Below the pieces are notes generated by a model. The model saw only the letters and a program-made list of their open reading frames with translations, was not told where the DNA came from and did no database searches. This document shows, piece after piece, positions 46,295 through 46,375 of a stretch of DNA of 64,000 nt. This DNA comes from Squalus acanthias. Lineage: Eukaryota. The stretch spans positions 560,001-624,000 of the forward strand of contig JASTWF010000033.1 in the NCBI GenBank assembly GCA_030390025.1. The letters run 5' to 3'. Made by a program: the position numbers and the translations under genes. Within the stretch, counting starts at the first letter, position 1; every line of letters begins with the position of its first letter.

Positions 46295-46375
46295 GGCTCC
46301 TTGGTTTAGGAGTATGATTTTTGCTTAGAGATGGTCAGGTGAAAATTGCGAGAGGTTCAATTCCCGGGCGAGCCA
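46295..46375 (+). pseudogene. tRNA-Pro (AGG-derived, now AGA) pseudogene with 16-nt intron-like insert (46331-46346)
   Basis: GGCTCCTTGGTTTAGGAGTATGATTTTTGCTT-AGA-G[ATGGTCAGGTGAAAAT]TGCGAGAGG^TTCAATTCCCGGGCGAGCCA; 7-nt T-stem deletion. Confidence 0.8.

Follow-up and report, generated by a model that had tools for sequence, protein, structure and literature searches.

A decayed tRNA-Pro copy points to a large family of tRNA-Pro genes with short canonical introns in the shark Squalus acanthias

The 64,000-nucleotide stretch of Squalus acanthias DNA analysed here (assembly GCA_030390025.1, contig JASTWF010000033.1, positions 560,001 to 624,000; hereafter the window) contains at 46295-46375, on the forward strand, a tRNA-Pro body that is split by 16 bases. 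This element is an ordinary pseudogene, and its value lies in the large family of tRNA-Pro genes with introns to which it leads, a family that appears to be maintained and that has a parallel in Arg-TCG genes. The family exists in the genome, its intact members combine conserved exons with divergent introns, and these introns follow a pairing rule at tRNA position 32. We have good confidence that the window element is a dead paralogue of this lineage-specific family, which is characterized by a short intron at the canonical 37/38 site (between tRNA positions 37 and 38) and whose intact members are probably transcribed. From the conservation and from the position-32 pairing rule we infer that the intron-bearing genes are transcribed and spliced.

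The window copy is a decayed tRNA-Pro with an insert at 37/38

The element consists of GGCTCCTTGGTTTAGGAGTATGATTTTTGCTTAGAG, ATGGTCAGGTGAAAAT and TGCGAGAGGTTCAATTCCCGGGCGAGCCA, in this order. The 5' exon remnant (46295-46330, forward strand, as are the two other parts) comprises the acceptor, the D arm and the 5' strand of the anticodon stem, with AGA at the anticodon (46327-46329) and G37 at 46330. The 16-base intron remnant (46331-46346) is placed after G37 and before T38, which is the canonical site of introns cut by the TSEN endonuclease, and the 3' exon remnant (46347-46375) provides the 3' strand of the anticodon stem, the T loop and the 3' strand of the acceptor. The original prediction, made from the letters of the window, had described a tRNA-Pro body with a 16-nt insert one base 3' of the anticodon, a third-last insert base (A) able to pair with U32, and a decayed copy with an AGA anticodon and a 7-nt deletion in the T stem; all these features were confirmed.

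Searched with a 25-base pattern, the 5' half of the pseudogene gave one match in the window when 0.00 matches were expected from shuffles; the 3' half, searched with a 21-base pattern, also gave one, with 0.01 expected. Both tRNA-like halves thus greatly exceed chance. By itself, the insert is without significance (1 match at ≤3 mismatches versus 1.0 expected). When we compared the element with the intact paralogue L024 (loci, L, and contigs, C, carry our own numbers), we observed that 29 of the 36 bases of the 5' exon are identical, several of the changes being C>T or G>A, and that 9 of the 16 bases of the insert are identical to the L024 intron, at equal length and at the equal site. Relative to L024, exon 2 has lost 7 bases of the T-stem 5' strand; in addition, the discriminator C is replaced by A, the acceptor stem is broken by a mismatch and the anticodon has decayed to AGA. 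ARAGORN made no call on this copy, either without or with intron search, and no match to the Rfam tRNA family (RF00005) was found even at E ≤ 10. Because neither of them calls it, we regard the element as a pseudogene and not as a functional tRNA gene. It also lacks the intact mature tRNA body that serves for measuring by the endonuclease, which the intact paralogues possess.

One could imagine a one-off insertion into an already dead pseudogene, without any kinship to introns, since the insert sequence is found once in the window and is insignificant alone. Such an event is already contradicted by the hundreds of genes with inserts at 37/38 described below and by paralogues with homologous flanks which are intact genes with an insert of the same length, and we hold it to be scarcely credible.

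Most tRNA-Pro anticodon arms in the genome carry an insert

We searched the 3.7-Gb assembly (3882 contigs) for the exact anticodon arm of tRNA-Pro, with G37 and T38 separated by 0-30 bases. This pattern gave 542 matches in the genome, with repeat counts as lower bounds, and the reversed control gave 0. Nine of the 542 matches are without insert (AGG 4, CGG 1, TGG 4) and 533 have an insert at 37/38, the length of which is 16-22 bases among the matches listed. For inserts of 10-30 bases, the anticodon is AGG in 131 cases, TGG in 244 and, by subtraction, CGG in 158. Intron-bearing copies outnumber intronless copies by about 60 to 1, their exons being identical. One complete gene of 90 bases (CGG, intron ATATTTCGCTGCTTAAAA) is present in 131 copies without any change, and a 33-place pattern combining the insert with the exact 3' exon through the T loop was found at 460 loci. 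Most members of this census belong to tandem units of about 1623 bases, located on contig C26 (approximately 39.0-44.4 Mb) and on several smaller contigs; a unit contains a tRNA-Ser-GCT, a tRNA-Arg-TCG with a 17-base insert at 37/38 and a tRNA-Pro with a 17-18-base intron.

With intron search, ARAGORN called a tRNA-Pro with a 37/38 intron in L015-L017 and L023-L035, and among 18 other Pro loci it recognized a tRNA in 14; without intron search, none of the intron-bearing Pro genes was called. Against the Rfam tRNA model, the intron-bearing genes of L024 and L034 scored 47.8 and 47.6 bits and intronless genes 55.2 and 53.9, the gathering score being 29. The original prediction had supposed a family of spliced tRNA-Pro genes in this lineage, and had stated that it would fall if no intact intron-bearing tRNA-Pro existed elsewhere in the genome. 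The 533 genes with insert versus 9 without support the family in the DNA, its splicing being predicted from the sequence features presented below. Intact genes do exist elsewhere, as seen from the 131 perfect copies of the 90-base gene and from the ARAGORN and Rfam cloverleaves, and the proposed comparison of the insert with its flanks revealed about 520 bases of flank homology to two intact genes with 16-base introns.

Exons are conserved on divergent introns and spacers

Outside the bases fixed by the pattern, five classes of introns are carried by exons that differ at 0-1 positions from those of the intronless genes. Class a (contig C21), class b (C460) and class c (C26 at 42.78 Mb) have introns of 16 bases, class d (the arrays) of 17-18 bases and class e (C10) of 21-22 bases. 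Kinship between introns was detectable for a and b, for c and d and for the two e genes; the other pairs gave none, and the classes are mostly unalignable. Homology of the flanks was seen only within a/b, within c and within d. In the case of L023 and L024, the 400-base flanks differ by 17% and the introns at 1 of 16 positions, and the exons at 0 of 72; the naive chance of finding no exon change is about 2e-6.

For the arrays, we compared 26 distinct full units, chosen irrespective of the state of their genes and differing by up to about 13-16% from the reference unit. The mean pairwise difference was 0.101 for the spacer, 0.024 for the Pro exons (0.015 when the wobble base is excluded) and 0.136 for the Pro intron; in the same units it reached 0.054 for the Arg exons, 0.084 for the Arg intron and 0.109 for the Ser gene. 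The Pro exons are thus fourfold less variable than the spacers, and among 1073 spacer segments of 72 bases none reached the conservation of the Pro exons. Variable sites other than singletons were found at 3 of 72 positions in the Pro exons versus 356 of 1359 in the spacer (Fisher p = 2e-6). Canonical Pro exons are present in 14 of the 26 units, and 6 more units differ only by a T>C change in the D loop that is also present in the dispersed C10 genes. Among the genes compared here, this D-loop C variant was seen only in intron-bearing AGG genes.

The introns follow a pairing rule at position 32

U32 can pair with an A at the third-last base of the intron (U32:A(-3)), and U33 with A or G at position -4, in all 14 examples taken from the five classes as well as in the window copy. 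The U32:A(-3) pair is absent in four decayed copies (L006, L007, L008 and L017). It is a feature of TSEN-type introns that their third-last base pairs with position 32 and closes a 3' bulge of 3 bases, and we found this feature here. The short length of such introns was found as well, with 16 bases in the window copy and 16-22 bases in the listed family members, the intron sequence being poorly conserved. A full helix of four pairs between anticodon and intron can be formed in the AGG arrays (introns ending in TTAAAA), in the C10 genes and in the TGG arrays (introns ending in TCGAAAA).

The tRNA-Arg-TCG genes offer a parallel. The exact pattern of their anticodon arm gave 369 matches, 368 with an insert and a single one without (contig C23). 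Their introns end in CAGTT or CAGCT, which leads to the pairs C32:G(-3) and U33:A(-4), so that, from one family to the other, the pairing base of the intron follows the identity of position 32.

Weighing the splicing of the family

The family could be real in the DNA and nevertheless unspliced: a disabled tRNA-Pro with a 16-18-base insertion would have been amplified as a satellite-like array and by segmental duplication, and would give silent or useless RNA. The 131 identical copies fit a recent amplification of arrays, but arrays that differ by up to about 13-16% have Pro exons fourfold less variable than their spacers, and all three anticodons are present in them. The first run of four T (T4) is found only 55 bases downstream of the array-type Pro genes, which implies a long trailer or weak termination; however, the dispersed members have ordinary terminators, and in the intronless genes and most dispersed intron-bearing genes the T4 run lies within about 7 bases. 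Likewise, the Ser gene of the same array units is decaying and many dispersed copies are dead, but the five divergent intron classes are all found on intact exons, and all 14 examples retain the A(-3) pair, with Arg using C32:G(-3). We consider an unspliced family unlikely.

The late T4 run is one of several observations that weigh against a family of intact and spliced genes. Intronless genes are present for AGG, CGG and TGG alike, indicating that the intron-bearing genes are not strictly required. In the CGG classes the anticodon-intron helix has 2 base pairs only. Seven of the 9 copies of the C21 group are decayed and 2 are intact. The genes in L015, L077 and L080 are unlisted by Rfam at the gathering threshold, and in some Pro loci ARAGORN placed the intron elsewhere and printed Phe(aaa) or Leu(tag/taa). 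The census itself fixes 25 exon bases, so that decayed copies, such as that of the window, are uncounted. A look-up of sequencing runs with one array unit returned no RNA run on record; six organisms shared 21-42% of the words sampled from the unit, which is no indication of how widely it occurs. Finally, the conservation of the Pro exons could come in part from gene conversion; this account is limited by the fact that conversion from intronless genes would erase the intron.

The window copies were duplicated together with their flanks

The reading of the window element as a dead paralogue of an intron-bearing family is also carried by its surroundings. The pseudogene lies within a duplicated block (46132-46654, forward strand), which reaches beyond it by about 160 bases on the upstream side and 280 on the downstream side and is homologous to the L023 and L024 loci of contig C21, with 73.6-73.9% identity over 545-556 bases; a second alignment gave 74% for query 1-520. 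L023 and L024 each contain a tRNA-Pro-CGG that is followed by a T4 terminator; its exons equal those of the intronless gene, and its intron of 16 bases reads GTTATTGATTGAAATT or GTTATTGGTTGAAATT. An alignment of 30 related loci resolved three groups: the C21 group, that of the window copy and a 5'-truncated group. All members of the group of the window copy (L051-L057 and L059) are decayed, and the 7-base deletion and the AGA anticodon are common to L052, L055 and L059, indicating that the decay of the window copy preceded its duplication. Other contigs contain four elements almost identical to that of the window (99%, 99%, 99% and 93%). Since upstream flanks are homologous between copies, the element was spread by segmental duplication and not by retroposition.

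A first copy, which had been counted before this one, does exist at about 9161-9236 on the forward strand. It is a 5'-truncated tRNA-Pro pseudogene with a CGG anticodon and a 15-base insert at 37/38 (9192-9206), and its 5' acceptor strand is lost. It falls in the 5'-truncated group of the alignment, and its subgroup carries the insert AATGTTGGTTGAATTT and counts 16 copies at ≤2 mismatches. Copies 1 and 2 are located within paralogous units of a decayed tRNA cluster with Val-TAC-like and Val-AAC-like sequences.

A fragment of an interspersed repeat that resembles a short interspersed element (SINE) is present at 46410-46517 (forward strand). It starts about 40 bases downstream of the pseudogene and is not part of the tRNA. 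Given this proximity, and given that a first-look homology search produced 4295 candidates, one could take the window element for the head of a tRNA-derived SINE, the insert then being part of the family consensus. The candidates, however, mostly reflect the repeat part, the truncated subgroup being limited to the 16 copies mentioned above, and the proximity is not shared by an independent copy of the repeat (near 39762; approximately 39740-39860), which is not preceded by any tRNA-like sequence. The intact paralogues have T4 terminators after the tRNA and before the repeat, and the conserved upstream flanks point to segmental duplication rather than to retroposition. We therefore rejected the SINE-head reading, which we judge very improbable.

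Further observations on the arrays, the loci and the introns

The window contains further members of the duplicated and decaying tRNA cluster, at 8129-8201 (forward strand), 43740-43813 (reverse strand), about 8686-8760, about 44489-44560, 9544-9607 and 9911-9984. They include Val-TAC-like genes called by ARAGORN, one of which passes Rfam, Val-AAC-like pseudogenes, a tRNA-Gln (41.1 bits with Rfam) and a truncated Gln-like copy. The SINE-like repeat (containing AGCGCCTTTCACGAC and, further on, CAAAGCGCTTTACAGCCAATGAA) is typical of this genome, and one copy abuts the downstream flank of the pseudogene.

In the arrays, the 3' flank of the Pro genes (L034, L035 and all array-type loci) reads CGCCGCATTT(A/G)GTT, with no T4 before 55 bases. 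The array Arg-TCG genes have a 16-18-base insert at 37/38 (L034:116-207 and 1742-1833; C26 at about 39.0-42.2 Mb). In some arrays (L092 on contig C3245 and L094 on C394) the Ser-GCT gene has a changed anticodon and a broken T stem, and the adjacent intron-bearing Pro gene is intact. Among the dispersed loci, L016 (contig C10) contains at 2779-2870 a tRNA-Pro-derived gene with the anticodon AGT and a 19-base insert at 37/38, adjoining two intact Pro-AGG genes whose introns measure 21-22 bases; this gene is probably a further paralogue in decay.

The Phe(aaa) or Leu(tag/taa) calls of ARAGORN, with the intron set a few bases upstream, concern L027, L030-L032, L075, L083, L086, L088, L074, L080 and L087, where the exons are those of tRNA-Pro. 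This mislabelling is a trap for automatic annotation, default tRNA finders missing or mislabelling the intron-bearing Pro genes.

Concerning the origin of the introns, a duplication of the 5' half of the anticodon arm was considered and is unsupported (p = 0.18, array class). The class a and b introns (L023 and L024 on C21; L077 and L078 on C460) contain GGTTGAAAT or GGATCAAAT, which resemble their own T arm, GGTTCAAAT. The p value of this resemblance is about 0.003-0.006, uncorrected for 24 tests, and the resemblance may be a hint on intron origin, as a weak lead.

Discussion

We propose the following scenario for the family. An intron-bearing tRNA-Pro gene within a tRNA gene cluster would have been copied by segmental duplication, and most of the copies, both window ones included, would then have decayed. 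The intact members include a few dispersed genes and, arranged in 1.6-kb tandem units, several hundred others; their internal promoters are unchanged, and RNA polymerase III probably transcribes them.

Vertebrates are usually credited with a small and fixed set of intron-bearing tRNAs, and Arg-TCT is among the intron-containing tRNAs in human. Hundreds of tRNA-Pro genes with short introns are unusual in this context. The genes described here, as read from their sequence, would have canonical tRNA introns in isotypes for which the literature searched describes none in vertebrates, i.e. Pro and, in parallel, Arg-TCG. A wider proposal, which we put forward only tentatively, is that cartilaginous fishes have gained canonical introns in Pro, for three anticodons, and in Arg-TCG, isotypes that are intronless in other vertebrates, and that the gain in Pro maybe took place more than once. 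A repeated gain in Pro is possible because three groups of introns have no detectable homology in sequence or flanks.

If this were true, the shark genome would provide a living snapshot of the birth and spread of tRNA introns in a vertebrate. It would also be the source of one very abundant 18-base intron RNA, which could act on its own; freed yeast tRNA introns have been reported to do so. Identical tRNA-Pro exons with and without introns, together with several unrelated-looking classes, the arrays and the parallel of Arg-TCG, form a direct comparative system, with which one could date intron gain, test in vivo the needs of TSEN and reveal any role of the intron RNA.

Comparison with known systems

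Large tandem arrays of tRNA genes are found in Xenopus and zebrafish, where kilobase-scale units with several tRNAs are repeated hundreds of times. The shark arrays resemble them in having kilobase units that hold several tRNA genes and recur hundreds of times; we know of no report of Pro or Arg-TCG introns in the Xenopus or zebrafish arrays.

Eukaryotic tRNA introns are generally short, with 15-30 bases, and poorly conserved (PMC10485636). In human introns cut by TSEN, the pair between position 32 and the intron is conserved together with the 3' bulge, the 37/38 site and the short length (PMC10539383, PMC10485636). The shark family is similar to these human substrates in its 37/38 site, its short introns and its position-32 pair. 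Human isodecoders named as having only intron-bearing genes are Tyr-GTA, Ile-TAT and Leu-CAA (PMC10539383), and pre-tRNA-Arg-UCU is mentioned in PMC10485636. Unlike the human set given in PMC10539383, the isotypes here are Pro (AGG, CGG and TGG) and Arg-TCG, with hundreds of copies and tandem arrays.

Our literature search brought up no vertebrate for which a paper names introns in Pro or Arg-TCG. According to the Squalomix preprint of 2025 (10.1101/2025.06.08.657570), however, tRNA loci with introns are abundant in sharks and have expanded there, so that the phenomenon of intron-bearing tRNAs in sharks is not wholly unreported. This work, which used tRNAscan-SE across shark genomes, probably concerns the same phenomenon; the accessible part of its text comes without isotype, intron sequence, array structure or conservation analysis.

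We also scanned metagenomes with the tRNA-Pro pattern with insert and obtained at least 122 matches at at least 118 loci, all with non-vertebrate exons among the matches listed. In each of these at least 122 listed matches, at least 6 of the 47 free exon bases differ, whereas the exons described here are of the vertebrate type; the scan is therefore uninformative on vertebrates. The motif CCCT, which is complementary to the anticodon, is present in many of the metagenome introns, whereas those described here pair mainly via U32-A and U33-A/G.

Budding yeast has 10 intron-containing tRNA-Pro(UGG) genes (PMC4090602), and the shark family is like these fungal introns in isotype, in the 37/38 site and in short length. 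Unlike in fungal and yeast Pro, intronless and intron-bearing genes with identical exons coexist in the shark genome. How eukaryotic tRNA genes gain introns is presented as unresolved in PMC4090602. The same source describes a tendency for an isodecoder to have introns either in all of its genes or in none, and treats recent gains in yeasts as rare. The mixed state observed here, with identical exons and in a vertebrate, departs from this isodecoder rule. Lineage-specific gains are nevertheless described for tRNA-Ala-UGC in Lachancea thermotolerans and for tRNA-Gly-UCC in Kluyveromyces lactis, both intronless in relatives (PMC4090602), and these yeast gains resemble the shark case in that the intron belongs to one lineage and the isodecoder lacks it in related ones.
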